Assembly (NCBI GenBank): GCA_964505635.1
Contig: CAZDIP010000002.1
Coordinates: 37,736 to 101,735, forward strand
Source of the DNA: an uncultured Candidatus Saccharibacteria bacterium
GTDB lineage: Bacteria; Patescibacteriota; Doudnabacteria; UBA920
Direction of reading: 5' to 3'
Length of the DNA stretch: 64,000 bases
The notes under the pieces: model-generated
Told to the model about the DNA's origin: nothing
Databases searched by the model: none
What the model saw: the letters and a program-made list of their open reading frames with translations, nothing else
Shown here: positions 9,530-57,063 of the stretch, in pieces
Layout: every line of letters starts with the position of its first letter
Numbering within the stretch: the stretch's first letter is position 1
Made by a program: the position numbers and the translations under genes

Positions 9530-11500
9530 TTAATTTTTCACTCTTTTCAAAGACATGTAAATTACGCCGAACAATAAAATTAAAACCCCAGGATAAATAA
9601 TCATTCTAAAATCCCGGGATTTTTGTATTTGTCCTGCATTTAAATTTGAATAACTCTCCGACAAATCCGAATTTTGTTTATCTGTTTGGCTTAAAGCTAA
9701 AATTTGAGTCTGTAAATCCGCCAAAACAGATTGCATCTCCAAAATTTTTGCCTGTAAATCTTTTACCTGATTAATCAACTGACCAGCTTGACTGCGACTC
9801 AAAATTGACTGGCTCTTGTCAGTGTTTGTTATATTTTCTTCTAACAAAGCCTTTTCCTCTTCATCGGTAGTGGCAGACAAAACCAACGCATTTGGCTCTT
9901 GTGGGGTCAGCTGGGTTGTCCAAGCATATTTTTCACCGTCCAGACTAGCATACGACATGCCGGCTTTGGCCACCGGATAGCTCACCTCAAAAACCAATCG
10001 GCCAAAAGCATCAAATAACTTCAAAGTTTGTCCGGCATTGCTTAAACGAGCAGGCAAGTCATCTTCATAAACGACAAAGTAAGCTTTGCCCGGCAAAATT
10101 GTGCCTTGATGAAAAACTTTTTTCCTCCCGCCCAAAGTTAGGGTCATACCTTCCAAATCTATATTTTGATCAGTCAGATTATAAAATTCCACAAATTCTT
10201 CCTGTTCGCCTTCAGGTCTCGGCAAAATTTCACTAATTACTATTTTGCTTATTTCAGAAACTTGATCGTTCGGCAAATTGCGAGTCGGAATGCCCCAACT
10301 CCACTTATTATCTTTATTTTTTATCCAGGACAAATTTTCTTCGGCATCTTCATAAATTACAGAATCCAGCATTTTTTTCTGCGGAGAAAAAAGTTTCAGC
10401 CTTTCCTGTCCGCTGTTATTTAAAATTAGAGACTCTTTAGGGAAGTCTATTGCCAAAACTCCCATTGGCGGGATCAAAAAGCCTTCCGGCACCGCCCATG
10501 CGGATTCAGTAAAATCATCTTTAATGCCATCGGCAAAATAATACCCGCTTAAAGTTACCGTCGCGTAACCGGGATTATAAACTTCCGCCCATTCCCTGCC
10601 CTGGTCTTCGCCCAAAGGATTGGGAAAAATTTCGTTAATTTGCAAAAAATTACTGCTTTGTAAAGTTTCGGGTGCAGAACCGCTAAAGGAAGACCCGCCA
10701 CCCCCGCCGGAATTGGAAAAATTTCTTATCGGAGGCTGCCAAACTCCGTTAACCAGCTCAAAAATCCCGTCATCATAAGCTTCGGCCAAATACGCCGCCT
10801 GGTCTGCAAGGCTGCTGTCTGAAAAATATAAATTAACTTCATCACCGCCAGTATTGTTCAAAGCAAATGCCTCGGCGGGTAAAATAATTTTTTTAGTCTC
10901 TCCCGGCAAAATACTGCCTGACAAAATATAGGCGCTGCTGCCCGGCCCTGTGCCGGTATTTTTGTCGTCAATAATCCAGCCGTTTAGCAGCACCGGTTTT
11001 TCTTCGCTGCTTTTTATTTCCACCCATTCATTACCTTCATCTGATCCGGTTGGATTGGGTAAAAATCTAAAAATTTTAATATTCATACTTGTTGTTAAAA
11101 ATTCAGGCTGAGCCGGAACCGATGCATTAATGGTAAAAACTCCTTCATTTAAGTCGGAATAGCAAAAACTTTTTCTGGCTGTTCCCAAAGCCATGGTCAA
11201 TACCGGATTTTCCAACAAACTCCCGCAGGGAGCTGTAGCCGGAGAAGAATAAAACTGTCCGCTTACAGAAGACGAAAGCAAACTGACCCGGGTGGTGGTA
11301 ACTGCATTGAATTTCAGACCTTCGTCAGTCTGCAATTCTACGGTAAACACCTCCGACATAGTTTCAGGTTTTACTTTTTGAGGCTCAGATATAATTTTTA
11401 TCTTTACAGCCTCCGTTGTCTGGGTCGTAAAATAAATCGCCGCAAACGCAAAGAAAACCAAAAGCCCGCGCATTTTGGAAATATCCTTTTTAATATTCAT
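9530..11500 (-). CDS. Secreted, C-terminally membrane-anchored surface protein with three lamin-tail domains (LTD)
   Basis: 656 aa; signal peptide; LTD signatures FLPNPTGSDEGNEWVEI, INEIFPNPLGEDQGREWAEVYN, ISEILPRPEGEQEEFVEFYN; coiled-coil; C-terminal transmembrane helix. Confidence 0.75.
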   Translation of the reverse strand: MNIKKDISKMRGLLVFFAFAAIYFTTQTTEAVKIKIISEPQKVKPETMSEVFTVELQTDEGLKFNAVTTTRVSLLSSSVSGQFYSSPATAPCGSLLENPVLTMALGTARKSFCYSDLNEGVFTINASVPAQPEFLTTSMNIKIFRFLPNPTGSDEGNEWVEIKSSEEKPVLLNGWIIDDKNTGTGPGSSAYILSGSILPGETKKIILPAEAFALNNTGGDEVNLYFSDSSLADQAAYLAEAYDDGIFELVNGVWQPPIRNFSNSGGGGGSSFSGSAPETLQSSNFLQINEIFPNPLGEDQGREWAEVYNPGYATVTLSGYYFADGIKDDFTESAWAVPEGFLIPPMGVLAIDFPKESLILNNSGQERLKLFSPQKKMLDSVIYEDAEENLSWIKNKDNKWSWGIPTRNLPNDQVSEISKIVISEILPRPEGEQEEFVEFYNLTDQNIDLEGMTLTLGGRKKVFHQGTILPGKAYFVVYEDDLPARLSNAGQTLKLFDAFGRLVFEVSYPVAKAGMSYASLDGEKYAWTTQLTPQEPNALVLSATTDEEEKALLEENITNTDKSQSILSRSQAGQLINQVKDLQAKILEMQSVLADLQTQILALSQTDKQNSDLSESYSNLNAGQIQKSRDFRMIIYPGVLILLFGVIYMSLKRVKN

Positions 11501-11573
11501 ATGTTTTTTGTTTCTTGCTAAGTAAGCTAACTATAAATAGTATGGCTCTAAAATCATGGTCGGTCAAATCAAA

Positions 11574-12161
11574 TTATTCCAAAAGCTCTGCCCTTACAAT
11601 ATAACGTTTCAATGCAGTTCCCAAAGGCCAGGAAGTCTGCAAAGTTAAAATTTTCTTATCTTCCGTATCCTGACTAAGTAAGTAAGTATCTTGCGAGGAA
11701 GCAATAAATTTTTCCTTAACTTCATAAGTAAAAATTTGCCCCGATTCGCTGCTTACAATAATTTTTGCGCCCAATTCTACTCTGGGCAAAAGCGCAAAAA
11801 CCGTCTTGTATTCGCCGGGCGAAACTTTTAAATCCGAGGAGTGGCCGAAAATATAGGAATTTCCGGTTTCACCAAACTTGGCGGTGTTCGGATAGTGTAC
11901 CACGCCATACCTTAAGGCCGATTGAAACAAATTTTCATTTACCGCATCTACATATACCACGGGTGCCTCTATGCCCAAGGTTGGTATTAAAAGACTGTTG
12001 GATAAAATTTTATCTTTTTCTGAAAGTAAAATTTCCGGCTTGAGACTATGCGGTCGCAAACTATGTTTTAAATTCAAAAATACAAATTGCCAGTTGAGTA
12101 ACAGAACCAGCAAAATTAAAAAGCCAAAGATTATAACAAGTTTTTTTAAAACTACCTTCAT
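11574..12161 (-). CDS. Sortase-family protein with Ser at the catalytic Cys position (TLQTSWP instead of TLxTC)
   Basis: 195 aa; transmembrane anchor; sortase His motif NSYIFGHSS, 70 residues later LTLQTSWP (codon TCC), then KRYIVRAEL (conserved Arg); LIPTLGIEAPVV β-strand typical of sortases. Confidence 0.65.
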   Translation of the reverse strand: MKVVLKKLVIIFGFLILLVLLLNWQFVFLNLKHSLRPHSLKPEILLSEKDKILSNSLLIPTLGIEAPVVYVDAVNENLFQSALRYGVVHYPNTAKFGETGNSYIFGHSSDLKVSPGEYKTVFALLPRVELGAKIIVSSESGQIFTYEVKEKFIASSQDTYLLSQDTEDKKILTLQTSWPLGTALKRYIVRAELLE

Positions 12162-12193
12162 TAAATCCCTTTCAATTACAGCACAGGCAGTTT

Positions 12194-13741
12194 CTAAAGT
12201 TTGCTGTTAAATTTATATGGTAAATTTACCATTAAAATAACAACTAAAAAAACTACTAGCAGGGCACCTGCGCTCACGCCGGTTCTGGGCAATTGCGTAG
12301 CCTGGCCTAACACCATAGGCTTGTTTTCCGGCAAACCGAAATTTGCCGCGCCCGGTTGGTTGGTAAAATCTCCTGCCACCTGTCCGCTTAGCGGCACAAA
12401 AGTACTGCCGCCGCTCCCCCCAGACCCTCCGCCGCCGGATCCGCCGCCGCCCTCATCTAAGCTGCTCGTGCAAATCTGTCCTTGGGGACAAACAACCTGA
12501 ATTTGAACGCCAGATGTATTATTGGACAAATTCGGATCAGCCTCGGCTGACTGAACTGTAGCCGTATTTACAATACTGGTTCCAACTGAGACACTACTTT
12601 TAACTTCGGCCAAAATGGTTAAACTTGCGCTGCTCCCACTTGCCAAATTGCCGACTGTCCAGACATTGGGAACAAAACCACCTTGTGTGGAAGTGGAAGA
12701 AATAAACAAAAGTTCTGGGGGTAATACATCTGTCATTATTACGTTTTCTGCTGTATTAGGACCACTGTTAGACACGCTAAAAGTATAAATTAAAGTTGAG
12801 CTGGCTGTGCTAGTAGGAGCGCTGACCGTTTTCAACAAACTTAGATCAGCTACACCACCGCTCCCACCGCCGCCAGACGAACACTCCCCGTCCGTACACC
12901 CGCCTGACCCTTCCACAAAACGATTGCCAAAATTTATATCTTCGGCTGTAAAATTGTCAACAAAAACTTCATATTTATAGCCTGCTCCGGCTCCTGGTAA
13001 AGTCTGCTGCCAATTGTTCTGCAAAACTTCCCGTACTGTGTAATTTCCAGCCGGCAAAAATTCAAACTCGTAAAATCCAGTGGTGGTGGCAGTGGTGGTA
13101 ATTTTTTCTCCAAAATCATAAATAGCATTGCTGTTCTGGTCAATGTAGATTTGCCAGCCGCCAAGGCCTATTTCCGAGTTATTTTTTACGCCGTCGCCGT
13201 TTAAATCGTTAAACTTAATGCCCTGTATAAAACCCTCGCCAAAAACTTCCACCGTATTGGTCGTAACTGTAATTTTGCACTCATAATCCCCGCCCTTAAC
13301 CACTATGCCGCCGTCATGAGCCTGGGCCAGCTGCCCGGAAATTCCAGGCACATTTAACTTTACCCGCCAGTTATCCGCATTATCTAAAATAGAACTTAAA
13401 CTTGAAGTGGCCAGTGTGTCAGGCTCATTGGGCAAATCAATGTTTTTTATTTCCAAAAACGGACATAAATTCTCTTTACCTCCGACTGCCTCTAAGACGG
13501 TGTTATAAGTCGCTTGCTTAGAAGAAGTATCCAGCTGGACAGTATATGTTCTGCTTAAATTCTCACCCGGGTAAACGTTGCCAAAAGGAATCGCGGTGTC
13601 TGAAACCAAAAGCACCTGCAAAGCCGCGTTAACTTTCAAAATATTGCTCTGCAGCAGGCTTAAAACTGCTATCAAAACAACACTGGCAATTGCTGCCGAC
13701 AGCTTAACCAAATATTTAGTTTTCATATTTAACTGTCTCAT
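12194..13741 (-). CDS. Cell-surface protein with LPRTG sorting signal, DUF11 and SdrD-B-like repeat domains and Gly/Ser linkers
   Basis: 515 aa; N-terminal signal; FGNVYPGENL TasA/camelysin-like motif; DUF11-like (NSGPNTAENVIMTDVLP); SdrD B-like (FNDLNGDGVKN); C-terminus TQLPRTGVSAGALLVVFLVVIL + KFNSKL. Confidence 0.75.
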   Translation of the reverse strand: MRQLNMKTKYLVKLSAAIASVVLIAVLSLLQSNILKVNAALQVLLVSDTAIPFGNVYPGENLSRTYTVQLDTSSKQATYNTVLEAVGGKENLCPFLEIKNIDLPNEPDTLATSSLSSILDNADNWRVKLNVPGISGQLAQAHDGGIVVKGGDYECKITVTTNTVEVFGEGFIQGIKFNDLNGDGVKNNSEIGLGGWQIYIDQNSNAIYDFGEKITTTATTTGFYEFEFLPAGNYTVREVLQNNWQQTLPGAGAGYKYEVFVDNFTAEDINFGNRFVEGSGGCTDGECSSGGGGSGGVADLSLLKTVSAPTSTASSTLIYTFSVSNSGPNTAENVIMTDVLPPELLFISSTSTQGGFVPNVWTVGNLASGSSASLTILAEVKSSVSVGTSIVNTATVQSAEADPNLSNNTSGVQIQVVCPQGQICTSSLDEGGGGSGGGGSGGSGGSTFVPLSGQVAGDFTNQPGAANFGLPENKPMVLGQATQLPRTGVSAGALLVVFLVVILMVNLPYKFNSKL

Positions 13742-13744
13742 AAT

Positions 13745-16582
13745 CTAGTTGGAAATTGGCGCTTCCGAAACCAACTGGTTGTCGGGGTTTTGTTCCGGCT
13801 CTTTTGCCGCGGAAACCTCGTCCAGGGGTTTTTCTGGAGACTCTTCTATTTTAACCGGCTCATCCGGTTTGGGCGCTTTAGGTGTGTTTGGCTCCTCCTC
13901 GGTTAAGGCTGGTTTTTGAGCGTCTTGTGTTAAATCAGAAGCAACGGTTTCTTCATCTGCCGCCTTTGTGTCAATAATTTCTGGCTCAGCCGGCTCTGTA
14001 GCTGGCTCTTGGTTTAAAGCCGGCTCTAAACTTATGTCAGGCACAGCGCTTGCCATAACCTCTTCTTCCGAAGGCTCAGAGTCAAACACAATGCTGACGC
14101 TGGGCGCGGTATTTGAATCTATAAATTCGTCGTTGCTTTCCCCGGGGCTGGGATCGGGGTCTATCCAATTATTTGTTCCGTCAGGCATGCGGGTAAAAGA
14201 TTTGTTATCAGGCACGGATGCGCCGTAGTCGTAAGTTCTTTGGTCCACCAAAGAAGCTCCTTGCCAAAAATGTCCGTTGTAAAGCTTAACGGTATCGGTA
14301 CCGTCGTTGTCTAAATCAAAATCAGTGTCGCCCTCCCGATAAACAACCAAAAAACCGCCAGGTGCCACAGTTGTCGTGCCGGTATTGGTGTTTTCGGGTT
14401 TAATAAACAACTCATGGTAATTGTACAGGTTATAAGTAGCGCTTAAGCTGTCCAAACGCGCGTTATGCAAAGCGTCAGCACGAGTAAAAATAGCCTGCCA
14501 TTTTAAATACCTGCTATCCGGCAAGCCGGCAGCATTTAAATCCATGCCGCTTATATCGTCGCAAGCGCTAAAAGCGGAAAAATTCACCCCGTCGTTGGAG
14601 GTTGCGGCCTGAATGCAGACGTTACCGCTTAGGGAATTGCTTTCCGTCCAGGTTAAATTCTGCCAGTCAGCCCGATTGCCCTCGCCCGCGTCCAAAACCG
14701 TTTCTAAAGTACCGCTGCCAACCCCGCTTGAAAAAACCACGCTGCTTGAGCTGATTCCCAAATTAGAGGTTAAGCTGCTGCTCGCAAAATCCGAGTTGCT
14801 GGTCCAGGTTTTATTTTGTGCACTTCCCGGAGGTAGAAAATCATCGTACAAAACATAACCTTCCAAACTGAGCGGAGTGGAAGATCCATTATAAATTTCT
14901 ACAAATTCACCATCTAAACTGCCGCCAACACTACCTTGATCTGAGCCTGAAGGATTAGGTAAAAATTCATTTATCAACAACTGGTTTAAAGGGGAAAATA
15001 CCGGGCCGCAAGAAATAACTGAAGGTAATGGCCTGAAATTTACGGTCACGTTGCTGTCTAAGTCAATTGCGGGGCCGGTTAACGAAGTGCCTTCTTTTGC
15101 ATAAATTGCCAAAAGCGTACGGTTGGAATTAATATGCACATCCCCGCTTTGAGCGAAAAGTACCACGTCCCCAAGGTCAGAATTATTGCTTTCTGTTTCA
15201 ATGGCTGCGTCGTCGCCCGATTTGGGCAAAGAAGTGGAAATGAGCAAAAAAGTCCCTTTAGTGCCCGCGCCGTTAAATGCCACGTTGGCGCGGATGTCAA
15301 TTACCCCCTCCACAATAATTACGCCAAAGCTGTCGGCAAAAGCAGGATCCTGATTTATAACCACGTTGCTGTCTATTTTTAGATTACCATGCACATACAA
15401 AGTACCGTGCACATTTACTATATTATTGTTGCCAATTTCCAGGTTTCCCATAATTTCCGAAGGTCCCAAGTCTATAATTCCGCTGCTGCCTGGTATAACC
15501 AAACTTCCTAAAACCGTACCGCCGTCGTTGGCTTTGTCCTGCCAAAAAGCATTGTTAATTACCGGCAAGTCCTGGGCGGCTGACCCTGTGTTCGCACTCC
15601 CCGAAATAGTAAAGTTGCTGCTTTCTATGCTGCCGGAAACCGTCACGTCCCCGTTTATGTTTCGGTTTGCGCCTCCTCCGTTGGCTTCTAAATTATGATT
15701 GCCTTTTACTTGCCCGTTCACCGTAACATTAGCGGAAACATAAATATCGCCAAAGCTGTCGTTTGGTCCCGCAGCCATTAATGCTGTGTTTTCCGGGAAA
15801 TCAATATTTATTGGCTCGCACAAATCCGCCTGGGCAAACTGGTAAATTTTTATGTTAATCAGGCTAAAATGGCTGCCCACGCTGTCGCCGTCACAAGCCA
15901 CAGCCTTAACCACGCTGGTTTGGCTTACGGGCAAAGGCGGAATGGAATTTTTAAGGCCGCCGTTAGGGCCGCCGCAGTAAGGGTCGGAAAATACGTCCGG
16001 ATCAGTGCCTAAACCAACTGTATAAAAAATATGCGTGGCGTCTGAATCGCTGTCGCTAAATTCCACGTTAATGGAACTTGCGTAATTACCGCCGTCAGTA
16101 TTGTTCCAGCCAATATCCCCGGGCGGGGTTAAAACCGGCGGATCTATTTGCGCTAACGCGGCAGTGGTATTAATAATGTGCGCCTCAAAAGCCTGGAACA
16201 AAGGCAATAAAACCAAAACCGGAATTAATACCACGGCGGTATTATAAACGGTTTTAGATAAAAACTTTTTGAACAATGGTGGTTTTACCGTATTGGCCTG
16301 CGGCTTTAGTCCGTGGCGTTCGAAAATTTCCGCTTTTAAAACAGCCTCATTTACCACCCGCACCGGCACCCTCACTGCTTTTGGTTTTACTCTGCTAATT
16401 ACAAAGGGACTTACAATGCTTTTGTTATTTTTTGTCCTTACAATCTTTTTTACCACAGGCTTACCAACAAAAGTTTTTAAAGCCGCTGATTTTCGCTTTG
16501 CGGTCTTTGCCCGCGCCAAAACCAGACTTTTTTTCAAAGTCCTTGTTTTAACAACTTTTAATTGTTTGTCTTTTGCGGGCAT
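13745..16582 (-). CDS. Giant surface protein (945 aa): Lys-rich N-terminal tail, SipW-cognate-like signal/anchor, β-helix-like repeats, LTD domain, acidic Pro/Glu-rich C-terminus
   Basis: N-terminal roughly 100 aa Lys/Ala-rich; hydrophobic segment with FQAFEAHIINTTAALAQI (matching AFSAFEAHVINVTAR of the neighbouring genes); LTD motif INEFLPNPSGSDQG...EFVEIYN. Confidence 0.7.
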   Translation of the reverse strand: MPAKDKQLKVVKTRTLKKSLVLARAKTAKRKSAALKTFVGKPVVKKIVRTKNNKSIVSPFVISRVKPKAVRVPVRVVNEAVLKAEIFERHGLKPQANTVKPPLFKKFLSKTVYNTAVVLIPVLVLLPLFQAFEAHIINTTAALAQIDPPVLTPPGDIGWNNTDGGNYASSINVEFSDSDSDATHIFYTVGLGTDPDVFSDPYCGGPNGGLKNSIPPLPVSQTSVVKAVACDGDSVGSHFSLINIKIYQFAQADLCEPINIDFPENTALMAAGPNDSFGDIYVSANVTVNGQVKGNHNLEANGGGANRNINGDVTVSGSIESSNFTISGSANTGSAAQDLPVINNAFWQDKANDGGTVLGSLVIPGSSGIIDLGPSEIMGNLEIGNNNIVNVHGTLYVHGNLKIDSNVVINQDPAFADSFGVIIVEGVIDIRANVAFNGAGTKGTFLLISTSLPKSGDDAAIETESNNSDLGDVVLFAQSGDVHINSNRTLLAIYAKEGTSLTGPAIDLDSNVTVNFRPLPSVISCGPVFSPLNQLLINEFLPNPSGSDQGSVGGSLDGEFVEIYNGSSTPLSLEGYVLYDDFLPPGSAQNKTWTSNSDFASSSLTSNLGISSSSVVFSSGVGSGTLETVLDAGEGNRADWQNLTWTESNSLSGNVCIQAATSNDGVNFSAFSACDDISGMDLNAAGLPDSRYLKWQAIFTRADALHNARLDSLSATYNLYNYHELFIKPENTNTGTTTVAPGGFLVVYREGDTDFDLDNDGTDTVKLYNGHFWQGASLVDQRTYDYGASVPDNKSFTRMPDGTNNWIDPDPSPGESNDEFIDSNTAPSVSIVFDSEPSEEEVMASAVPDISLEPALNQEPATEPAEPEIIDTKAADEETVASDLTQDAQKPALTEEEPNTPKAPKPDEPVKIEESPEKPLDEVSAAKEPEQNPDNQLVSEAPISN

Positions 16583-16591
16583 GTAATAAAA

Positions 16592-17035
16592 TTATTTTTC
16601 TATATTTTGCAGTTTGGGCCCGAGGCTTCTGGCAATAACTCCGAAAAACGGAATTCTGAAAGGTTTGTCTTTTATGTAAACCATCCGTCCAACCACGTCT
16701 TTCGGGTTTACAGGCGCGTCTTCGGAATTGTTGGCGTCTCCTTTGGTAATCAGCATGCTGCCCTGTCTCCTTATAAGCCTGTGAATAGTAAAGCCCTGAG
16801 CGTTTTTATAAATAATTATTTGCCCCACTTTCGCTTCTTCTCCGCTTATGCCTTTCATTAAAATTAAGTCGTTGACTTTCAGCTGCGGCCACATGGAACC
16901 GGAAGTAATGGTGGCCAAAGGGTATGGAGTTTTTAAATAATGCGACAAAATTTTCGGGGTGTAATAAACAGCCAAACCGACAAATGCCAAATAAATAATA
17001 ATTTTTAAAACTCCTATCGCGATCTTTTGTAACAT
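16592..17035 (-). CDS. Type I signal peptidase, SipW/archaeal-ER type (S26B)
   Basis: 147 aa; transmembrane helix then ITSGSMWPQL (catalytic Ser in SGSMxP), conserved His in FTIHRLI, GDANNSED box; short single-domain form typical of SipW. Confidence 0.85.
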   Translation of the reverse strand: MLQKIAIGVLKIIIYLAFVGLAVYYTPKILSHYLKTPYPLATITSGSMWPQLKVNDLILMKGISGEEAKVGQIIIYKNAQGFTIHRLIRRQGSMLITKGDANNSEDAPVNPKDVVGRMVYIKDKPFRIPFFGVIARSLGPKLQNIEK

Positions 17036-17068
17036 TTGCTTATGAACGGGATTAAAAATTTTTAATTT

Positions 17069-17587
17069 CTACCATGGCTTGGGAATTTGGAAAACTATAA
17101 CTTTACCCCGATAGTAGCGGTATTCGGCAGAATTGGGAGTGCGGACAGTAAACTCCAGCTTTTCTCCCTGCCCGGATTTTAGCGTAAAATAATTTTTATC
17201 AACTTTCATTAAATCGCCAATCTCGCCGAATTTCCATACCATAATGTAACTGGAAACTTTGTACGGGCTTTGGTTGACCAAACTGACCGTCCTAACCGCG
17301 GTTTTGTCTTTGGGCAAGTCCCCAAAATCCAAACGCTCGCCGGTAGGGTTAACCCCTATTTTATCCGAATCAACCACCTGCACCAAAGCATCGTATTTTT
17401 CCGCGTTAACATACTGCACGGCCAGAAAAATAAACGCCAAAACCAGAATTATCCAAGCGGCCACGCGTTTTTTTGGCCTGGGTCTGGTTATCTCAGATTT
17501 TAATTCCGACAAAAATCCCCGCTGTTGCTCCCTTTCCATAACAGCCTTAGGCTTCATATGGCTGGGCATGTTTTCAAATGGATCCAT
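17069..17587 (-). CDS. Type II membrane-anchored accessory protein (hypothetical), immediately upstream of sipW-like
   Basis: 172 aa; cytoplasmic N-terminus, one transmembrane helix, about 110-aa extracytoplasmic β-rich domain; position analogous to TapA in tapA-sipW-tasA. Confidence 0.45.
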   Translation of the reverse strand: MDPFENMPSHMKPKAVMEREQQRGFLSELKSEITRPRPKKRVAAWIILVLAFIFLAVQYVNAEKYDALVQVVDSDKIGVNPTGERLDFGDLPKDKTAVRTVSLVNQSPYKVSSYIMVWKFGEIGDLMKVDKNYFTLKSGQGEKLEFTVRTPNSAEYRYYRGKVIVFQIPKPW

Positions 17588-17689
17588 AAATTTATATTGT
17601 TAAATAAAATTTGAAATTATTTGACAGGGTTAGCGTGCTTTCATCCCTCATCCCTGGCCCCAAAACAGGGCCAAAGGAAGCTATGAAAG

Positions 17690-19126
17690 CTAATTATTCT
17701 CGCAAACTGCCAAGCTGGCCAGTACGCTTTGCAGCAAAGTAAAGTCTGACGCGCTGTAGTAGTAAGAGGGCGCTGAGGCAACGGTGTTTTTTAAGAAGTC
17801 TTCAGTGCCCGCGGTTACGCCTACCCCGACCACATAAATCTTAATGCCGGCTGCTTTGGCCGCGGCGGCTGCCGCAGCTGCGTCGCCGCCCGCTGTGGGC
17901 TGGCCGTCGGTAATTAAGACTATAAAGTCAGGCGAGGTCGCGTCGTTACGGTCGCGCGCGCTCGCTAATTCAGCCGAGGCTGTATCCAAAGCCTGTTGCA
18001 AATTGGTCAAGCCGCCGGCTAAAAGAGCGTCTATGGCTGTATGAAGCGGCGTAGAAGAGCCGGTTAACTGCACGTCCAAAGTCGCGTCAGTGGAAAAACT
18101 GACCTGTGCGCCGTGAGGGCCAGTGTCGCTTAAACCCAAAGCCGTGACAAAGGCGTGAGCCGCTGTCTTCATGGTATTAAGTTCGGTGTCGCTTATGCTG
18201 CCGCTACGGTCTATAACCAAAGCTAAATCCAGCTGGTCGCTGCAAAGACCGCCGCCGGGCAAAGAAATGCCGGCCACTTCCACCCACAAATCACAGCCAA
18301 ACACTTTGTGTTCATTTTCTATAGGCTGGGTAAAAGCATTAGCCTGTTCCAAGGTGGTGTCTAAATTGCCGGTTTCCCTGCGGACAAAGTCCAGCCAGTC
18401 CTGGGCGCAATAGCCGCCAAAGCATGGTACGGCCAAATCTATCACCCACTTGTCCTGCGTATCCTGGTCTTGTTTGGACAAACGCCCCTTAGTGTCCAGC
18501 CAGGAAACCGTGCTGGTTCCCACCACAAAAGGCGTGTGGAAAGACTTGGTTACTTGGTCTACGGAAAGAGGTCCGTCTATATCCAGTTTTTCCCCGTCTT
18601 TGGAAATGTAGGGGCACAAGTTAGGCAGCAAACCCCAGCTTTCTGCTTCGTTTATATTAACTGTCTGAGTGTCGTCTACAGCTAAAACTCTGGGCGCTTC
18701 CCCGCAATCCCAGTAATAGCTTTCAACCACTTCGTTAGTGGAAGGGTCATCGCCGAATTTTACATGCGCGGTGCGCGTGTACATATGCGCGCCGTCCGGA
18801 CCTACTGAGTTGTCAAACGAACCGCCGTTGTTGGTGGTTATGGCGCACTTGGGTTTTTGGCGGATAAAGTATTCCACGTCGTCTACGCGGTTTTCCGCGA
18901 GGAAAGACGCGGACAAATTCACGTCAATGGTTTTTTCCAAATGCTCCTGCGGAAACACGGTGCCAAAATCCAAAAACTTGACCGGCACGTTAAGCGCGTT
19001 TTCTATCCTGGCCGTTACGTTTATAACGTGCGCTTCAAAAGCGCTGAAGGCCGCGGCGCCGGCGAGTATAACACCCAAAGTCCCGACGCCCAATATTAAT
19101 TTGTTGAGTATTTTTTTCATGTTCAA
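17690..19126 (-). CDS. Secreted vWA-domain protein with SipW-cognate-like signal peptide and Cys-containing N-domain
   Basis: 478 aa; LGVILAGAAAFSAFEAHVINVTARIENAL; FGTVFPQEHL motif; N-domain shared with the 19339-20181 paralogue; C-terminal vWA with MIDAS DRSGSIS and ITDGQPT. Confidence 0.8.
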   Translation of the reverse strand: MNMKKILNKLILGVGTLGVILAGAAAFSAFEAHVINVTARIENALNVPVKFLDFGTVFPQEHLEKTIDVNLSASFLAENRVDDVEYFIRQKPKCAITTNNGGSFDNSVGPDGAHMYTRTAHVKFGDDPSTNEVVESYYWDCGEAPRVLAVDDTQTVNINEAESWGLLPNLCPYISKDGEKLDIDGPLSVDQVTKSFHTPFVVGTSTVSWLDTKGRLSKQDQDTQDKWVIDLAVPCFGGYCAQDWLDFVRRETGNLDTTLEQANAFTQPIENEHKVFGCDLWVEVAGISLPGGGLCSDQLDLALVIDRSGSISDTELNTMKTAAHAFVTALGLSDTGPHGAQVSFSTDATLDVQLTGSSTPLHTAIDALLAGGLTNLQQALDTASAELASARDRNDATSPDFIVLITDGQPTAGGDAAAAAAAAKAAGIKIYVVGVGVTAGTEDFLKNTVASAPSYYYSASDFTLLQSVLASLAVCENN

Positions 19127-29480: not shown

Positions 29481-29696
29481 ATGCGTCAAATCATACAATT
29501 TGCCAATATCCTGGTCATGGTGTTATTGATTACTGTTATTGCGCTCCAAAACAAATCTTCCGGACTTTCAAATATTTTTGGAGGGGCGGGCAATATTGTA
29601 TCCACCCGGCGTGGTTTTGAAAAATGGCTATTTTACGCAACCATTGCCTTAGGCGTTCTGTTTGTGGCAATTAACATCTCTTTCCTGTTTATTTAA
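29481..29696 (+). CDS. secG: Preprotein translocase subunit SecG
   Basis: 71 aa, two transmembrane helices with central Gly-rich segment NIFGGAGNIVSTRRG typical of SecG. Confidence 0.75.
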   Translation: MRQIIQFANILVMVLLITVIALQNKSSGLSNIFGGAGNIVSTRRGFEKWLFYATIALGVLFVAINISFLFI

Positions 29697-29722
29697 AAAA
29701 ACGCCTGGCCAGCCTGGCTGAC

Positions 29723-31456
29723 ATGAATGGTATTTTAGAAAATTCAACGACTTACGCGAGGCAAATTTTTGCCGGCGTAAAAGAAATAAAGCGCCTCAAC
29801 CTTTCCCGCATACGGAAAGTTTTTTCATTAATGGGCAAAAATGAAAAAAGAACGGTACTTGGCTTGGGATTACTGGCCGCTGCCAGCCTAACATGGTCTG
29901 CCTTAAACTTTTATTTAGAGCACACCGAACCGGGGGCAGGGATAGGCGGCAGTTACAAAGAAGCGCTAATAGGACAACCCGTGTACTTAAACCCTTTATT
30001 AGCCCACACCGAAACAGACCTAAGTTTAAGCAAGCTGATTTTTTCCGGCCTATATAAATATGACGGGCAGGGGCAATTAATTCCCGACTTAGCCGAGGGT
30101 ATGCCTCAAATTTCTGAAGACCAAAAAAACTACACAATTAACCTAAAACGTAACGCCAAATGGCACAATGACCAACCGGTAACGGCCGATGACATAATTT
30201 TTACCTTCCAAACCCTCAAAAATCCTGAATACAAAAGTCCGTTAAAAAATCTTTGGCAGTCTACGAACATTGAGAAGCTGAGCGATTACAGCATAAAATT
30301 CACAACTAAAGATATTTCCGGGCCCTTTATATACAATCTTACTCAAGGAATTTTGCCCAAAAATGTTTGGGAAAAAATAGAGCCTCAAAACTTCCTGTTG
30401 TTTCAGGGTAATTTAGAAGCTGTTGGCAGCGGGCAGTATGCCATTAGGGAGATAAAAAAATTAGCCAGCGGCAAAGTTCAAAGCATTAAACTAAAATCTT
30501 ACAGCAATTTCTACGGCGGAAAGCCAAAAATTGAGGAAATAACCTTTGACTTTTACGATACCGAGGAAGATGTTTTAAATGCCCTCCATAGCCGGGAAGT
30601 TACGGCATACGGCTTTATGCCTTTGGGAAGCGAGTTATATTTAGACAAAAACCAGGCTAACTTAAAAATTTATTCCTTACCGCTTCCTCAATACCAGGTT
30701 GCTTTCTTTAACCTTACCAAACCCGTTATCAGCGAAGAAGCGGTACGCAAAGCCTTGGAAAAAGCAGTTGACCGTCAAAAAATTATAGATAAAATTTTTA
30801 AAGGCGACGGGCTTTTACCAAGCTCGCCTTTAAACCCGGAAAATAAAGCCGGTGACTTTGAACCTGAACTGGCCGCGCAAATGCTTGATAAAGCCGGCTG
30901 GAAAATTGACCCCCAAACCAACATACGCAGCAAGCGCAATAGCCAATTGGAAATTACTATTGCCACTAACGACTCTCCGGCCAATGCCAAAGCCGCTGAA
31001 ATGCTGGCTGACGGATGGCGGCAACTGGGCATAAAAGTTAGCCTTAATATCCTTCCAACCAAAACGTTAACTGACGGCGTTATTAGACCAAGAAATTTTG
31101 ATGTCTTAATTTTTCCTCAAAAATTCGGACCTGACCCTGACCCTTTTGTCTTTTGGCATTCCAGTCAAGTCAAAGACCCGGGATTAAACCTGACCGGCTT
31201 TAATTCACCGGATGCGGACAAACTTATAACCCAAGCCCGTTCCACCACCCAAACCCAAATAAGACAAGCTAAATACCGTGAATTAGATAGCCTAATTTCA
31301 GGAACAGTTCCGGTAATCTACCTAAATCAAATGGTATTTTTATACGCTTTAGACGGCCAGATAAAAAATGTCAGCTTAAGCCATCTGTATGAACAGAACT
31401 ATAGGTTTTACGATGTTGGCAATTGGTATATAAATACCCGACGAGTTTGGAAATAG
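29723..31456 (+). CDS. ABC transporter substrate-binding protein, family 5 (oligopeptide/nickel type), membrane-anchored
   Basis: 577 aa; N-terminal transmembrane anchor; family-5 substrate-binding-protein core (ADDIIFTFQTLKNPEY, FDVLIFPQKFGPDPDPF). Confidence 0.85.
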   Translation: MNGILENSTTYARQIFAGVKEIKRLNLSRIRKVFSLMGKNEKRTVLGLGLLAAASLTWSALNFYLEHTEPGAGIGGSYKEALIGQPVYLNPLLAHTETDLSLSKLIFSGLYKYDGQGQLIPDLAEGMPQISEDQKNYTINLKRNAKWHNDQPVTADDIIFTFQTLKNPEYKSPLKNLWQSTNIEKLSDYSIKFTTKDISGPFIYNLTQGILPKNVWEKIEPQNFLLFQGNLEAVGSGQYAIREIKKLASGKVQSIKLKSYSNFYGGKPKIEEITFDFYDTEEDVLNALHSREVTAYGFMPLGSELYLDKNQANLKIYSLPLPQYQVAFFNLTKPVISEEAVRKALEKAVDRQKIIDKIFKGDGLLPSSPLNPENKAGDFEPELAAQMLDKAGWKIDPQTNIRSKRNSQLEITIATNDSPANAKAAEMLADGWRQLGIKVSLNILPTKTLTDGVIRPRNFDVLIFPQKFGPDPDPFVFWHSSQVKDPGLNLTGFNSPDADKLITQARSTTQTQIRQAKYRELDSLISGTVPVIYLNQMVFLYALDGQIKNVSLSHLYEQNYRFYDVGNWYINTRRVWK

Positions 31457-31533
31457 GTTTAGGGATAAAAGCAAGTAACGATGACATCAAAACACCTTTA
31501 TGGCTTATACAAAATACTTTATACTACCTTTAT

Positions 31534-31804
31534 GCCGCGGTGGCGAAATTGACAGATTCACCCCGCACCATTTTCAAAAATATCATTCCTTGTTTAGGGC
31601 GAGTGGCGGAATTGGCATACGCGTACGTTTCAGGTACGTATGAGCGAAAGCTCGTGAGGGTTCAAGTCCCTCCTCGCCCACCAAAGTTAATTTGCCAATA
31701 AAATGGTGCGGGGCGCGTACGCTTTCCGCCTTAGTTAAAACATCGGCGGACAGGCAGGTGCGTACGACCGCAAGGTCATGAGAGTTCAAATCTCTCCCGC
31801 GGCA
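31534..31804 (+). ncRNA. Split tRNA-like sequence: 5' tRNA-like half and 3' half (T-arm + complementary 7-bp acceptor strand) separated by about 256 nt that contain tRNA-Leu(CAG) and a 14-bp long-range helix
   Basis: 5' GCCGCGGTGGCGAAATTGACAGA (31534-) resembles a class II tRNA start; 3' GAGAGTTCAAATCTCTC-CCGCGGC-A (31780-31804); CCCCGCACCATTTT (31561-31574) pairs with AAAATGGTGCGGGG (31700-31713). Confidence 0.3.
31597..31683 (+). tRNA. tRNA-Leu (anticodon CAG), CCA encoded
   Basis: Acceptor GGGCGAG/CTCGCCC; D-arm GCGG-AATTGGCATA-CGCG; anticodon stem TACGT/ACGTA with loop TTCAGGT; long variable arm; T-arm GAGGG-TTCAAGT-CCCTC; discriminator A + CCA. Confidence 0.85.
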
Positions 31805-31858
31805 TCAGTTATACCTCTAGCTTAAACGCCCTAAAGCGATTTTCTTATAATTTTAATC

Positions 31859-31887
31859 TCTTGACAAAAAAGTAAAAAAGGCGTATA
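31859..31887 (+). promoter_or_regulatory. Consensus sigma-70 promoter TTGACA-17nt-TATAAT, about 200 nt upstream of the RNase J gene (long leader)
   Basis: -35 at 31859-31864, -10 at 31882-31887. Confidence 0.55.
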
Positions 31888-32092
31888 ATTATATTGTTAT
31901 TTTAAGTCTAGCGAAACTAAAATTATCAAATTTCAAATAACATCTCTTTAATGATTTTATCTGTGATTTGCTAATTGCGAGCAAGTTTTAAATCCGGTCG
32001 GCCGAGTAGGCACTGGGTTAAAACGATCTTTTAGATCTTTATTTAATTTGGCCTCTACGCAAAGGGCCAGGAAAATTTATACGTAAGCAAGT

Positions 32093-34039
32093 GTGTTTGA
32101 GTTTTATGCAAACGACTCAATGACTCACGAGCAACAACTCAGTATGATTAAAAAAAATATGCCGCGGCGCTACGGACAGCACAAACCAACTTCCCATCAG
32201 CCGCACAGAAACCCAGGCGCTGCGCAACCACAGCGCCCGGTGGAATCCAAACCCGATCGTTTGGATATGCTTATTAACAAAGCAACCAGTTTGATTTCCG
32301 GTAATTTAGGCAGGCAAAACCAGGAAAATAATTTTTCCGGAAAACCCACCAGCCGCTATACCGCCTCCAGGCAAAACTTAAGGATTATTCCTATGGGAGG
32401 AGTGGAAGAAGTTGGTGAAAATATGACAGCCCTGGAATATGGCGATGACATTATTGTCATAGACATGGGTTTAGCTTTCCCCGACGACACCATGCCGGGC
32501 ATTGACTATATAATCCCGGACACCAAATGGCTGGAAGACAACAAACGCCGCATCCGCGGGGTTATAATTACCCACGGCCACTTAGACCACATAGGCGCGG
32601 TTCCCTACATTTTGCCTAAATTAGGCGACCCTCCGGTTTATACCATGGCTTTAACCGCCGGCTTTATAAAAAAACGCCTTGAAGAATTCGGGTTATTAGG
32701 CCGAAGCAAGTTAAATGTTTTAACCAAAGACGACGTATTGGCATTGGGTAATTTTAAGGTCAGATTTTTCAGGCTTAACCACTCCATTCCCGACAGTATG
32801 GGTCTTAGCATTGTCACGCCGGTAGGACAAATCATCTACGCTACAGACTGGAAATTTGACCACACCCCGGCAGACGGCAAACCCACGGAATTTGATAAAA
32901 TCGCGCGCTTTGGAGCGGAAGGCGTATTGCTTTTAATGTCCGACTCCACCAACGCGGTCAAGCCGGGCTACTGCGCTTCGGAGAGAGAAATAGGCCTAAC
33001 CATAGACAGGACTTTTTCTGACATAAAAGGAAGGGTAATTTTCGCCAACTTCTCCACCAACATTGCTCGCATTCAGCAAGTTTTTGATGCCGCGGCAAAA
33101 TACAACCGCAAAGTCATAGTTACCGGACGCAGCTTGGTAAATAATATAGAAATTGCCTTGTCTTTGGGTTATTTAAAAATCCAACCCAAAATTATTGTTA
33201 AGTCCGAACAGGCCAAAAAATTCCCCGACAACCAGATTGTAATTTTAACTACCGGCGCCCAAGGCGAAGAAGCCGCCGGCTTAGCCCGCATTGCCCGCGG
33301 CGACCATAAAACCGTTAAAATTAAAAAAGGCGATACCACCATTGTCTCCGCCTCCCCCATCCCGGGCAACGAGCGGGCCATTTCGGCCATGCTTTCCAAC
33401 CTTACCCGCTTAGGCAGCCATGTAATATACAACAAAACATTGGATATTCATACCTCCGGCCATGCCCACCAGGAAGAATTAAAGTTAATGATAGCCTTAA
33501 CCAAGCCTAAATATTTTATGCCTATTCACGGCGAACACCACATGATAGTCGCTCACGCCGAACTGGCAAAAACCATGGGCATCCCCCAGGAAAATATTTT
33601 TACTTTGGACAACGGACAAATTTTGGAAGTTGGCAGCGACCGCGTAGCCAAGCCCACCACAGACGAAAAAATTTCCTCGGGCTATGTCTTTATAGACGGC
33701 CTGGGAGTGGGTGATGTAGGCGAAGTGGTAATTCGCGACCGCCAGGTAATGGCGCAAGACGGCATGTTTGTAATAATTCTGACATTAGACCGCCGCAGCG
33801 GCAAACTAATAAACCAACCGGATATTATTTCCCGGGGCTTTATTTACATGAAAGGCAACGACGACCTAATTAGAGAAGTTAAGCATGAGGTAAGAAAGCT
33901 TACAGAAAACAAGGGTAAAGAAAAACTTGAGCCCAACTACGCTTACTTAAGAAATATTATCCGCGACGAAATCGGCGAATACCTCTACCAAAAAACCGAA
34001 AGACGCCCAATGATTTTGCCGGTCATAATTGAAATATAA
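32093..34039 (+). CDS. rnj: Ribonuclease J (metallo-β-lactamase / β-CASP) with about 100-aa basic/Gln/Pro-rich N-terminal extension; start uncertain (GTG at 32093 or a downstream ATG)
   Basis: LRIIPMGGVEEVGENM, VIITHGHLDHIGAVPY (HxHxDH), β-CASP and C-terminal domain collinear with RNase J. Confidence 0.9.
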   Translation: MFEFYANDSMTHEQQLSMIKKNMPRRYGQHKPTSHQPHRNPGAAQPQRPVESKPDRLDMLINKATSLISGNLGRQNQENNFSGKPTSRYTASRQNLRIIPMGGVEEVGENMTALEYGDDIIVIDMGLAFPDDTMPGIDYIIPDTKWLEDNKRRIRGVIITHGHLDHIGAVPYILPKLGDPPVYTMALTAGFIKKRLEEFGLLGRSKLNVLTKDDVLALGNFKVRFFRLNHSIPDSMGLSIVTPVGQIIYATDWKFDHTPADGKPTEFDKIARFGAEGVLLLMSDSTNAVKPGYCASEREIGLTIDRTFSDIKGRVIFANFSTNIARIQQVFDAAAKYNRKVIVTGRSLVNNIEIALSLGYLKIQPKIIVKSEQAKKFPDNQIVILTTGAQGEEAAGLARIARGDHKTVKIKKGDTTIVSASPIPGNERAISAMLSNLTRLGSHVIYNKTLDIHTSGHAHQEELKLMIALTKPKYFMPIHGEHHMIVAHAELAKTMGIPQENIFTLDNGQILEVGSDRVAKPTTDEKISSGYVFIDGLGVGDVGEVVIRDRQVMAQDGMFVIILTLDRRSGKLINQPDIISRGFIYMKGNDDLIREVKHEVRKLTENKGKEKLEPNYAYLRNIIRDEIGEYLYQKTERRPMILPVIIEI

Positions 34040-37506: not shown

Positions 37507-37994
37507 CTGATTCTACACTAGATCAGCGCCCAAAGAGCGCTCAAACGTCTACTATTTTATTCCTATTCTCCCAAACCGTCAACAGTGGATAAATTGTCTT
37601 GCGCGGAAAAATAAACAGGAATATATTAAAAATGTTATGATCTACCGCACTGCTAAGATGCGCAACCTACTTTTTTGGCTACGGCGCCGCAGGGCGCCAG
37701 CAAGGAGGCTCACATGAGACACGCGAAAACCCCCTTTCGTGGGTAACTGAGGCAGTGAAAGTCTCGCCTAAATAATATATTCTACAAGGCGAGGCAAATA
37801 GCACTCTAACCCACGAAAGGGGGTGATCACAAGCAATACGGGGCAATCCCCGGGCGCACCGCTACCTTGTCGGTCGCGCCTTTTCTTTTTACCAAAATAA
37901 AAACCGCCTTTGGCGCGGATATCGGGCGGTTCCAAAGCGTTGGAACCGCCCCTCTTGCATCCTTACAGACGCTTATTTACTCCCGAGCTTCACC

Positions 37995-39042: not shown

Positions 39043-40125
39043 ATGTCCTTCAAAATCGGCATTGTCGGTCTGCCTAATGTAGGCAAAAGTACCCTCTTTA
39101 ACGCCATTACCAAAAGCAAAGTAGAAGCAGCCAATTACCCGTTTGCAACCATAGACCCAAACGTGGGCGTGGTTGCTGTGCCTGACGAAAGACTAGCTAA
39201 ATTAGCTGAGTTAGAAAAGTCGGAAAAAGTCGTGCCTACCACAATTGAATTCGTAGACATAGCAGGCTTGGTTAAAGGCGCCTCAACTGGCGAGGGTTTG
39301 GGTAATAAATTCCTTTCCCATATACGCGAAGTGGACGCTATAATGGAAGTAGTGCGGTTTTTTGAAAACAAGGACATTATTCATGTAAACGGCAACGTAG
39401 ACCCAAAAAGGGATATGGAAACCATTGGCATAGAACTTCAGCTTGCAGATTTGCAGAACGTTGATAACCGCCTTTCATCTATTTCCCGCCAAGCCAAAGC
39501 CGGCGAAAGGGACGCGGTTATAAAAAAACAGGTTTTAGAAAAATACAAAGCTGCTTTGGAAAAAGGCGAAATGGCTAATACGGTTATATTAACCGATGAA
39601 GAAAAAGAACACAGCAAAGACATTCAGCTTTTAACCACCAAACCGTTTTTATTTGTGGCCAACAGCGAATACGATATGGCAAATAAGTCATACAAGACCG
39701 ACGCGTCATATAAGTCCTATTTGCTCGACGCAATTTTAATAGATGCGCAAATAGAAAGCGAACTGGCTGAACTTAGTGATACTGATCGCGAGGAATATTT
39801 AAAAGAGCTCGGCCTGCCGGAGTCAGGCTTAGACAAAATTATAAAAACCGCATACAAAACTTTAGGCCTTATAACCTTTATAACCGCCGGGCCAAAAGAA
39901 AGCAAAGCCTGGACATGCACAAAGGGAAGCAAAGCTCCCCAGGCAGCAGGAAAAATACACACTGATTTTGAAAAAGGTTTTATACGCGCGGAAGTTATAC
40001 AATGGAATAAGCTTTTGGAAGCAAATGGCTACGGCGGAGCCAGGGCAAAAGGCTGGCTCAGGACTGAAGGCAAGGAGTATGCGGTACAAGATGGGGACGT
40101 GGTGCACTTTTTGTTTACCCCGTAG
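39043..40125 (+). CDS. ychF: Ribosome-binding ATPase YchF (Obg-family)
   Basis: 360 aa; GIVGLPNVGKSTLFNA P-loop, DIAGLVKGAS, C-terminal TGS domain. Confidence 0.95.
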   Translation: MSFKIGIVGLPNVGKSTLFNAITKSKVEAANYPFATIDPNVGVVAVPDERLAKLAELEKSEKVVPTTIEFVDIAGLVKGASTGEGLGNKFLSHIREVDAIMEVVRFFENKDIIHVNGNVDPKRDMETIGIELQLADLQNVDNRLSSISRQAKAGERDAVIKKQVLEKYKAALEKGEMANTVILTDEEKEHSKDIQLLTTKPFLFVANSEYDMANKSYKTDASYKSYLLDAILIDAQIESELAELSDTDREEYLKELGLPESGLDKIIKTAYKTLGLITFITAGPKESKAWTCTKGSKAPQAAGKIHTDFEKGFIRAEVIQWNKLLEANGYGGARAKGWLRTEGKEYAVQDGDVVHFLFTP

Positions 40126-40169
40126 ATTTATTGTACGGGGTTTAATGTATAACTGACCAAAAAACACGC

Positions 40170-56769: not shown

Positions 56770-57063
56770 ATGTCTACTAATAAACATATGCATTACGTTT
56801 ACGTATTATGCAGTAGGAATAATAAGTGGATCTATATTGGCTGTACAGATGATTTAAAAAATAGATTTAAACAACACGAGAAAGGAGAAGTATTTTCAAC
56901 TAAAAGCCATAGACCCTTAAAACTAGTTTACTATGAAAGTTATGCCAATAAGGCCGATGCAAGAAGCAGAGAATATAAATTAAAACATCACGGTCAAACA
57001 AAAGAGCTTTTAGTTAAGCAAATAGAAAAATCTATAAATATGGCGCTATCGTCTAATGGTTAG
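56770..57063 (+). CDS. GIY-YIG nuclease-family small protein (start taken at MSTNKHM; the ORF track starts at 56749)
   Basis: HYVYVLCSRNNKWIYIGCTDDLKNRFKQHEKGE...KLVYYESY...REYKLKHHG (GIY...YIG, R, E); the last 11 codons are encoded by the second direct repeat and overlap tRNA-Glu. Confidence 0.7.
   Translation: MSTNKHMHYVYVLCSRNNKWIYIGCTDDLKNRFKQHEKGEVFSTKSHRPLKLVYYESYANKADARSREYKLKHHGQTKELLVKQIEKSINMALSSNG
57030..57055 (+). repeat. 26-bp direct repeat (copy 2) overlapping the GIY-YIG 3' end and the tRNA-Glu 5' end
   Basis: Identical to 56711-56736. Confidence 0.85.

Follow-up and report, generated by a model that had tools for sequence, protein, structure and literature searches.

In the window, by which the whole 64,000-nucleotide stretch of contig CAZDIP010000002.1 analysed here is meant (64 kb; all positions refer to it), one tRNA gene is nested inside another. 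A tRNA-Leu(CAG) gene at 31534-31804 (the outer gene) is interrupted by two clean insertions, and the larger of them, a 157-bp cassette in the D-loop, carries a second, intact tRNA-Leu(CAG) gene (the inner gene). In the outer gene we see a resident of the allele with the acceptor strand GCCGCGG that was recently disrupted, being split and in all likelihood functionally replaced, and the nest is one case of a recurrent process in Doudnabacteria and other bacteria of the Candidate Phyla Radiation (CPR). This conclusion draws on the insertions seen against an intact allele, on their recurrence among relatives, on a series of decaying outer copies and on the computed fold of the region.

Freed of both inserts, the outer gene is identical in 84 of 87 positions to the intact tRNA-Leu(CAG) of the related locus L028 (L001, L002 and so on are labels of the related loci or contigs compared). 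The differences are G19A, A26G and C75T, two of them at invariant positions; through C75T, CCA has become TCA. The alignment to the intact allele reveals a clean 157-nt insertion after tRNA nucleotide 23, with no bases duplicated or deleted, and places a 30-nt hairpin insertion after nucleotide 34 of the 87-mer; the outer 5' piece corresponds to nucleotides 1-23 of the L028 tRNA with G19A as sole difference. As one of its readings, the original prediction, made from the letters of this region, had proposed a tRNA gene disrupted by insertion with target duplication. The disruption is borne out by the uninterrupted version in a related genome, the duplication is not. Moreover, the outer copy has what marks a tRNA pseudogene, namely an intact homologue, disabling lesions and, in the inner gene, a gene with the same anticodon. 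The elements of the nest and the bases on either side of it are as follows.

31520-31525, + strand: -10-like box TATACT, 8 nt upstream of the outer tRNA 5' end
31534-31804, + strand: outer tRNA-Leu(CAG), whole, with two clean insertions within
31534-31556, + strand: outer 5' piece GCCGCGGTGGCGAAATTGACAGA, consisting of acceptor GCCGCGG, U8 G9, D-stem 5' strand GCG and D-loop AAATTGACAGA
31557-31713, + strand: inserted cassette, 157 bp, between D-loop and D-stem 3' strand of the outer gene
31557-31560, + strand: cassette tag TTCA, 5' end of the cassette
31561-31574, + strand: cassette 5' arm CCCCGCACCATTTT, 14 bp, pairs with the 3' arm
31575-31596, + strand: cassette leader, between 5' arm and inner tRNA
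31597-31683, + strand: inner intact tRNA-Leu(CAG), acceptor GGGCGAG, A73, encoded CCA (ARAGORN, Rfam RF00005)
31684-31699, + strand: cassette trailer, between inner tRNA and 3' arm
31700-31713, + strand: cassette 3' arm AAAATGGTGCGGGG, perfect 14-bp inverted repeat with the 5' arm
31714-31804, + strand: outer 3' piece, rest of the class-II tRNA body
31714-31716, + strand: outer D-stem 3' strand CGC, directly after the cassette 3' arm and followed by G26
31725-31754, + strand: tagged hairpin TCCGCC-TTAGTTAAAACATC-GGCGGA with tail CAGG, 30 bp, between U33 and C34 of the outer anticodon loop
31780-31804, + strand: outer T-arm, acceptor strand and discriminator GAGAG-TTCAAAT-CTCTC-CCGCGGC-A, acceptor pairing 7/7
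31805-31807, + strand: TCA, where CCA is encoded by the intact allele as well as by the two intact tRNAs of the window

The inner tRNA, presumably the working gene, scores 52 bits against Rfam RF00005 (E = 2.7e-8) and is the one tRNA called in the region by ARAGORN and Rfam; the window's other intact tRNA, a tRNA-Glu at 57042-57116, likewise encodes CCA. In its intron mode ARAGORN finds in the native sequence the inner tRNA alone, next to spurious low-quality calls. Given the outer gene without the cassette it reports a tRNA with an intron, and without both inserts a canonical tRNA-Leu(CAG). The 'tRNA-Gly(UCC)' with a 30-nt intron at 37/38 that appears after removal of the cassette is an artefact, as the canonical intron position is forced on a class-II Leu body. 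The inner tRNA, the 5' third of a class II tRNA upstream, the T-arm, acceptor strand and discriminator downstream and the perfect 14-bp helix enclosing the inner gene had all been listed in the original prediction and are present base for base. Overlooked were the remainder of the outer tRNA body between the helix and the T-arm, and the 30-nt hairpin within it: the outer 3' piece runs in the order CGC, G26, anticodon stem TACGC/GCGTA, variable arm CGACCGCAAGGTCAT, T-arm, acceptor, A73.

Is such an arrangement to be expected by chance? With a minimum of 14 bp and a spacer of 20-300 nt, inverted repeats occur twice in the 64 kb against a mean of 0.23 in shuffled sequences. In addition, the minimum-free-energy fold of 31534-31807 (-112 kcal/mol, z = -5.7, 0 of 200 shuffles as stable) reproduces the nested architecture, with the 5' junction in a one-sided loop made of D-loop bases and TTCA, the 3' junction flush with the helix and the anticodon insert forming a continuous extended helix. 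The rarity of the repeat and the z-score together argue that the nest is not a product of chance. The DNA sequence of the cassette arms includes TTTACCCCGCAC.., and hairpins with a CAGG or CAAG tail are found at the equivalent anticodon-loop position in many other outer copies.

Judged by its sequence and position, the TATACT box is presumably the promoter of the old resident gene and would now drive the whole nest. The same box stands at equal distance before the intact tRNA-Leu(CAG) of L010, L014, L015 and L024 and before the orthologous outer gene of L002; a strict sigma-70 scan does not call the box at 31520-31525.

Recurrence and decay of nests

In sister genomes, whose RNase J is 86-89% identical, the resident allele and its upstream sequence are shared and the cassettes differ. 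The GCCGCGG allele of L002 is broken by another cassette with the inner allele GCTCGAG, and the upstream sequence is almost identical, with TATACT 8 nt before +1. L003 and L004 carry the inner allele GCCCAGG, and here the GCCGCGG allele is left as a downstream 3' relic only (..CAAATCTCTCCCGCGGCACCA in L003, CCGCGGCACCA in L004). In L001 the GCCGCGG allele is itself the inner gene and lies within a GCCCAGG relic. Since different cassettes sit on one resident allele in sister genomes, several independent replacements must have occurred within a narrow clade.

The frequency of nests was assessed in 58 loci linked to rnj, the RNase J gene, that contain a tRNA-Leu(CAG). Nesting of this sort is seen in about 20 of the 58. 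Both outer halves were found in 13 loci and one-sided relics in about 10 more; the nest of L053, the deepest seen, is built of three layers. All stages of decay are represented among the outer copies. They differ by 1-5 nt from alleles that are unbroken elsewhere, a count that excludes automated gapped alignments of metagenome outer copies to reference tRNAs, which were over-fitted. Many copies are more severely damaged. Uncompensated acceptor mismatches are present in L001, L033, L034 and L068, whole outer halves are lost in L004 and L016, and the halves of L084 and L172 do not match each other (an automated search for acceptor partners on outer copies is noisy). Furthermore, the outer anticodon arm is interrupted or otherwise not intact in 20 of 30 copies, and in L051, L028, L056 and L059 a GC hairpin stands in its place. 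The innermost tRNA is intact in every nest. In the 22 related loci where ARAGORN calls no tRNA-Leu upstream of rnj, this region is free of interrupted tRNA-Leu fragments. Insertions were thus seen only in copies that are backed by an intact inner gene, which fits inactivating insertions and not spliced ones.

An insertion polymorphism was observed between the orthologous Leu-TAG nests of L118 and L128. A TTTA-tagged hairpin in the outer T-loop of L118 is absent from L128, and the relic anticodon carries a substitution too, indicating recent movement of the hairpin and a lack of constraint on the relic.

Nests are not confined to the rnj locus or to a single isoacceptor. A metagenome scan with a pattern for the 5' junction, including 12 nt of the 5' arm, returned at least 120 matches. 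Among the matches listed, about 72 unique ones are chance matches in unrelated coding DNA and 32 unique ones are true nests with the inner anticodons CAA, TAG, GAG, CAG and TAA. Tag, arms and insertion site of the cassette are common to 30 unique nests covering these five Leu anticodons. Inner and outer anticodons are nearly always equal, the exception being L150 with GAG inside and CAG outside. Identical junctions recur in dozens of independent metagenome-assembled genomes (MAGs) and metagenome contigs from different studies. The metagenome nests lie at ordinary chromosomal loci, and clustering of the proteins around the 32 nests yielded as recurrent neighbours ParB-, ParA-, RelA/SpoT- and L19-like proteins, labels that were assigned by reading the sequences. 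In a full-text literature search, no account of tRNA genes lying within other tRNA genes was found for bacteria.

On contigs of this same set, nests with equal anticodons were also noticed for other amino acids: a tRNA-Val(TAC) with the arms CCCCGCACCAAAT/ATTTGGTGCGGGG lies in a Val relic, in its T-loop region (L157, 1398-1582), a tRNA-Ile(GAT) interrupts an Ile relic at its anticodon loop (L112, 8430-8640), and a tRNA-Phe(GAA) sits within a Phe relic (L118, 11170-11430).

Origin of the nest and fate of the outer gene

How did one tRNA gene come to lie inside another of the same anticodon? Probably the nest consists of a disrupted resident gene and a replacement cassette, transcribed from the old promoter and closed by its arms, from which the inner tRNA is released and the outer halves are discarded. 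For transcription, processing and the entry of the cassette we infer the following course of events. A 157-bp cassette with a tRNA-Leu(CAG) of the allele GGGCGAG would have entered the D-loop end of the GCCGCGG resident, and the 30-bp REP-like tagged hairpin (REP, repetitive extragenic palindrome) would have landed later between U33 and C34 of the old gene. The full 271 nt would be transcribed from the promoter of the old gene, whereupon the arms could pair over 14 bp and clamp off the inner pre-tRNA as a separate domain. RNase P and 3' trimming would then free the inner tRNA, and the outer halves, having lost their decoding function, would remain as a by-product. More generally, a tRNA cassette would enter a loop of a resident gene, whose anticodon is nearly always the same, and take over the gene's function; the disabled outer copy would gather hairpins, mismatches and deletions until the new gene alone remains, and repeated rounds would build nests of up to three layers. 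As to the route of entry, single-strand transposition of the REP type or of the REPIN type (REP doublets forming hairpins), or homing by recombination through the homologous outer halves, appear the likeliest. That inner and outer anticodons agree almost throughout could be due to a survival filter, or it could stem from homology-guided insertion or such homing, which would also explain the fixed site for each tRNA family and the chimeric outer copies.

Two types of element recur, and excision of either restores a perfect tRNA with no target duplication. The first consists of TTTA or TTCA followed by a hairpin and occupies two sites, the end of the D-loop and position 55/56 of the T-loop. The second is a hairpin followed by CAGG or CAAG and is found after A15 of the D-loop, at 33/34 of the anticodon loop and, reversed, in the T-loop. 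The combination of tag and palindrome, TTCA/TTTA+CCCCGCAC.., is present in 30 unique cassettes, as in the short palindromes with tetranucleotide tags known as REP and REPIN elements. In 725 kb of related DNA that was searched for them, CCCCGCAC-type arms or inverted repeats occur at tRNA-Leu genes only.

A number of related elements were seen in other settings. Hairpins headed by TTTACCCCG also stand at gene 3' ends, in the window at 40110-40140 and elsewhere after the rnj stop codon of L004, L011 and L022. The hairpin at 40110-40140, TTTACCCCGTAG..GTACGGGG, overlaps the stop codon of a YchF-like GTPase gene and has the same TTTA+CCCCG head as hairpins in tRNA relics elsewhere. Arms of the CCCCGCAC type surround about 85-120 nt of non-tRNA cargo in L182, L154 and L144, in the first two within relic anticodon loops and in L144 in a non-tRNA context. 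L090 contains tandem 22-nt units, GGTAGATTCACCCCGCAAAAGC, each with the junction motif of D-loop end and arm. Tn3-like GGGG ends, Xer/dif-like sites, integron attC sites, tetranucleotide targeting of the IS91 type and CRISPR-repeat or Cas6-like processing were also considered and dropped for lack of support.

Several observations weigh against a dead outer gene and a mobile cassette. All outer stems of the window are perfect, and some outer copies (the middle layer of L053, L111 and L191) seem fully intact except for their D-loop insertions. The 19 nt of the 5' arm and 16 nt of the 3' arm are identical in seven cassettes (12 nt of the 5' arm were in the search pattern, which is a bias), and at least 10 distal arm variants exist, each matched by its partner, with a median perfect arm of 11 bp. 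Moreover, the alignment to the intact allele shows no target-site duplication at the 157-bp insertion, Pfam scans detected no transposase, integrase or HNH/homing endonuclease in the 58 open reading frames (ORFs) of the window, and the recurrent neighbours of the 32 nests are housekeeping families with no mobility gene among them. No RAYT, the Y1 transposase of the IS200/IS605 type associated with REP elements, was found in the 58 ORFs or among these neighbours. The perfect stems of the window can be attributed to the recency of the disruption rather than to selection, given the 84/87 identity to the intact allele.

The conservation of the arms deserves separate consideration. In the seven cassettes with identical arms the enclosed tRNAs average 72% identity, and the flanking proteins of their hosts are 45-84% identical. 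To judge from the sequences compared, the matched distal variants point to selection on the helix. Arms that are more conserved than neutral relic DNA should be may reflect selection at the level of the element, for mobility, or at the level of the host, for maturation of the inner tRNA, and this conservation may hint at a protein partner. The helix of many cassettes extends without a gap to the inner acceptor stem. The leaders of the L033, L068 and L069 cassettes measure only 6-7 nt and therefore leave no room for a promoter of the cassette's own.

Such features would be accommodated if the outer gene were dead as a decoder and yet co-opted, providing a promoter and start site as well as an arm scaffold or protein-recognition site for folding and maturation of the inner tRNA. 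The conserved -10-like box before the outer 5' end and the short-leader cassettes without room for a promoter are in line with this proposal, as are arms that are conserved beyond the tRNAs, covary in their distal parts and in many cassettes pair right up to the inner acceptor stem. In-silico shuffling of one arm abolished the predicted inner acceptor stem in two of five trials, a mixed outcome that lends the proposal weak support. However, 39 of the 58 related loci have the same tRNA without a detectable outer 5' half or arms, the arms are decayed or absent in L002, L016, L026 and L039, and arm conservation is partly an ascertainment effect of the search pattern, so that a co-opted relic is considered unlikely.

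Alternatively, the outer tRNA could still be functional, the inserts being removed at the RNA level or excision by RNase P and RNase Z leaving a two-piece tRNA-Leu clamped by 14 bp, which would resemble two-piece tmRNA or archaeal split tRNAs. Exact removal of each element does regenerate a perfect tRNA, the inserts are confined to loops with all five outer stems intact in the window, the arm sequences are strongly conserved and covary, and the otherwise intact copies of the L053 middle layer, L111 and L191 have kept ACCA. Nevertheless, no bulge-helix-bulge (BHB) motif and no match to an intron or ribozyme model was found, and the copy in the window has an interrupted anticodon loop and has lost G19 and CCA. 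Many copies have acceptor mismatches or missing or unmatched halves, and 20 of 30 are without an intact anticodon arm. Hairpins never occur in the sole or innermost copy at the rnj locus, which harmless spliced introns should have no reason to avoid. A functional outer tRNA is thus very unlikely.

A related idea sees in the tagged palindromic inserts a new kind of bacterial tRNA intervening sequence, whose conserved helix and 4-nt tag would be recognised by an endonuclease and a ligase, or whose clamp would join a two-piece tRNA; the outer gene would go on supplying a usable tRNA-Leu, and the inner tRNA would be hosted by an intron. If true, it would mean that bacterial split or spliced tRNAs exist in CPR organisms. 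The original prediction had raised the possibility of an intron-containing or split tRNA hosting another tRNA, which is not supported in view of the absent intron-model match and BHB motif, the interrupted anticodon loop, the loss of G19 and CCA and the decay of outer copies. An Rfam scan of 31300-32150 at E<=10, bearing on group I and group II introns, returned no intron or ribozyme family; a weak permuted-tmRNA match within this threshold is noise from the inner T-arm. We regard an intervening sequence of this kind as highly improbable.

Resemblance by chance, a chimeric assembly of strain variants and a decayed tandem duplicate, the last named in the original prediction, can practically be dismissed: similar tRNA-Leu alleles could confuse metagenome assemblers, but the junctions recur in dozens of independent MAGs and contigs of different studies, the fold has a z-score of -5.7 with an inverted repeat expected about 0.2 times per 64 kb, and a tandem duplicate cannot place a 5' half upstream and the matching 3' half downstream of an intact gene, the flanks being halves of one gene in a true nest.

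If a disrupted resident and its replacement cassette are indeed what the nest consists of, CPR bacteria would turn over essential single-copy tRNA genes by a route for which no published description was found. The cassette would persist in a compact selfish manner, as losing the insert would mean losing the tRNA, the relics would form a built-in record of successive replacements, and the nest would be a natural case of a tRNA matured inside a larger structured RNA. In practice, tRNA finders report the innermost gene only, and intron mode can mis-call relics, as with the 'tRNA-Gly(UCC)' of ARAGORN. Nests can serve as strain-level markers, and genetic tools for organisms that resist manipulation might use the insertion sites as tolerated landing pads.

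Genomic surroundings

The gene order around the nest is uvrA, uvrC, secG, a family-5 solute-binding protein, the nest, RNase J and a class-I W/Y tRNA synthetase. RNase J of the window is 88-89% identical to that of MAGs labelled Candidatus Doudnabacteria or Patescibacteria, which identifies the window as part of a Doudnabacteria-like CPR chromosome. Look-ups of the exact solute-binding protein, SecG and RNase J sequences retrieved no recorded protein. A phage origin was rejected, as blastn of 29500-33800 against phage genomes matched the inner tRNA only.

Three further observations concern other parts of the window. Downstream of the nest, a perfect TTGACA-17-TATAAT promoter at 31861-31889 precedes a leader of about 200 nt before RNase J (31861-32092), and a motif TTGCTAATTGCG...GGTCGGC(Y)GA..GCCAC stands at the equivalent place in many related rnj loci; the leader at 31861-32092 has no Rfam match and may be an autoregulatory element. 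The non-coding region 37640-37880 contains the window's second inverted repeat of 14 bp or more, a long-range helix of 16-18 bp between about 37727-37745 and 37808-37826. It has no Rfam match at E<=1 and may be an unannotated structured RNA. Finally, large predicted surface proteins with Lamin-tail domains, DUF11 and VWA are clustered at 9530-19126 beside a sortase gene, as one would expect for the epibiont-like cell surface of CPR bacteria and unrelated to the nest.

Comparison with known systems

The nest shares single traits with several known systems. The tRNA interruptions described in Patescibacteria are group I introns (PMC13011429). They resemble the nest in that they belong to the same phylum and interrupt tRNA genes that standard tRNA finders miss. 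Unlike the inserts described here, those introns are self-splicing ribozymes that are 200 nt or longer and occupy the anticodon loop of genes that still function (PMC13011429), whereas no model matches here and the two inserts are 30 and 157 nt long, with tRNA taking up 87 nt of the longer one, which speaks against a group I or group II intron. The disrupted tRNA genes of archaea, with multiple or non-canonical BHB introns and intron transposition, resemble the nest in that their D-, anticodon- and T-loops are interrupted and related inserts occur at different positions, and in the split tRNAs of Nanoarchaeum a GC-rich helix of 12-14 bp joins the halves (PMC4090602, PMC4390854). In contrast to these, the nest belongs to a bacterium and has co-linear halves with a tRNA inside the insert, and its interrupted copies undergo decay, so that they appear not to be spliced. 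A BHB motif, with two 3-nt bulges 4 bp apart, is not formed at the outer junctions, and no splicing endonuclease or ligase domain was seen in the 58 ORFs of the 64-kb window. A split tRNA of the Nanoarchaeum type, in which halves from separate loci are joined by a complementary leader, is not indicated, as the halves lie on one strand and 157 bp apart, although a joining helix is present, nor is a circularly permuted tRNA, as the order is 5' half, insert, 3' half.

Among mobile elements, the Dada transposons of eukaryotes also insert site-specifically into small-RNA genes including tRNA-Leu, with the function kept elsewhere, but they are autonomous DDE-transposase elements that produce 6-7-bp target duplications in multicopy targets and bring no replacement gene (PMC3706591). 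A miniature inverted-repeat transposable element or a classical transposon would share the inverted ends with the cassette and differ from it by a target duplication. Phages, integrative and conjugative elements and genomic islands that target tRNA genes are similar in their landing site, in that the insert preserves tRNA function and in that a relic of the old gene stays behind. They span kilobases, encode an integrase, form direct repeats by duplicating the 3' part of the tRNA only and have the relic at one of their ends, while the inserts found here measure about 113-166 bp, contain no genes, bring a whole tRNA and have halves of the old gene on both sides. In the window, the 157-bp insert contains no ORF, is not bordered by direct repeats and carries a complete tRNA of a different allele, arguing against insertion by an integrase.

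REP and REPIN elements are extragenic palindromes with tetranucleotide tags that are mobilized by RAYT Y1 transposases (PMC3733652, PMC8049555). The tags of the elements described here are not GTAG or CGTC, and the arms CCCCGCAC are found only at tRNA genes in the 725 kb. Furthermore, the spacer, unlike that of a REPIN, is a complete functional tRNA, insertion is into loops of tRNAs of the same isoacceptor, and no RAYT was found in the window. On the other hand, the elements are short GC-rich palindromes with a 4-nt tag at the end (TTTA/TTCA+CCCCG.. and ..CGGGG+CAGG/CAAG), they nest in one another's loops and occur at gene 3' ends as well, and the cassette has two inverted arms around a spacer as REPINs do. 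The nesting of tagged palindromes into loops is closest to REP and REPIN elements, and the cassette resembles a REPIN with cargo.

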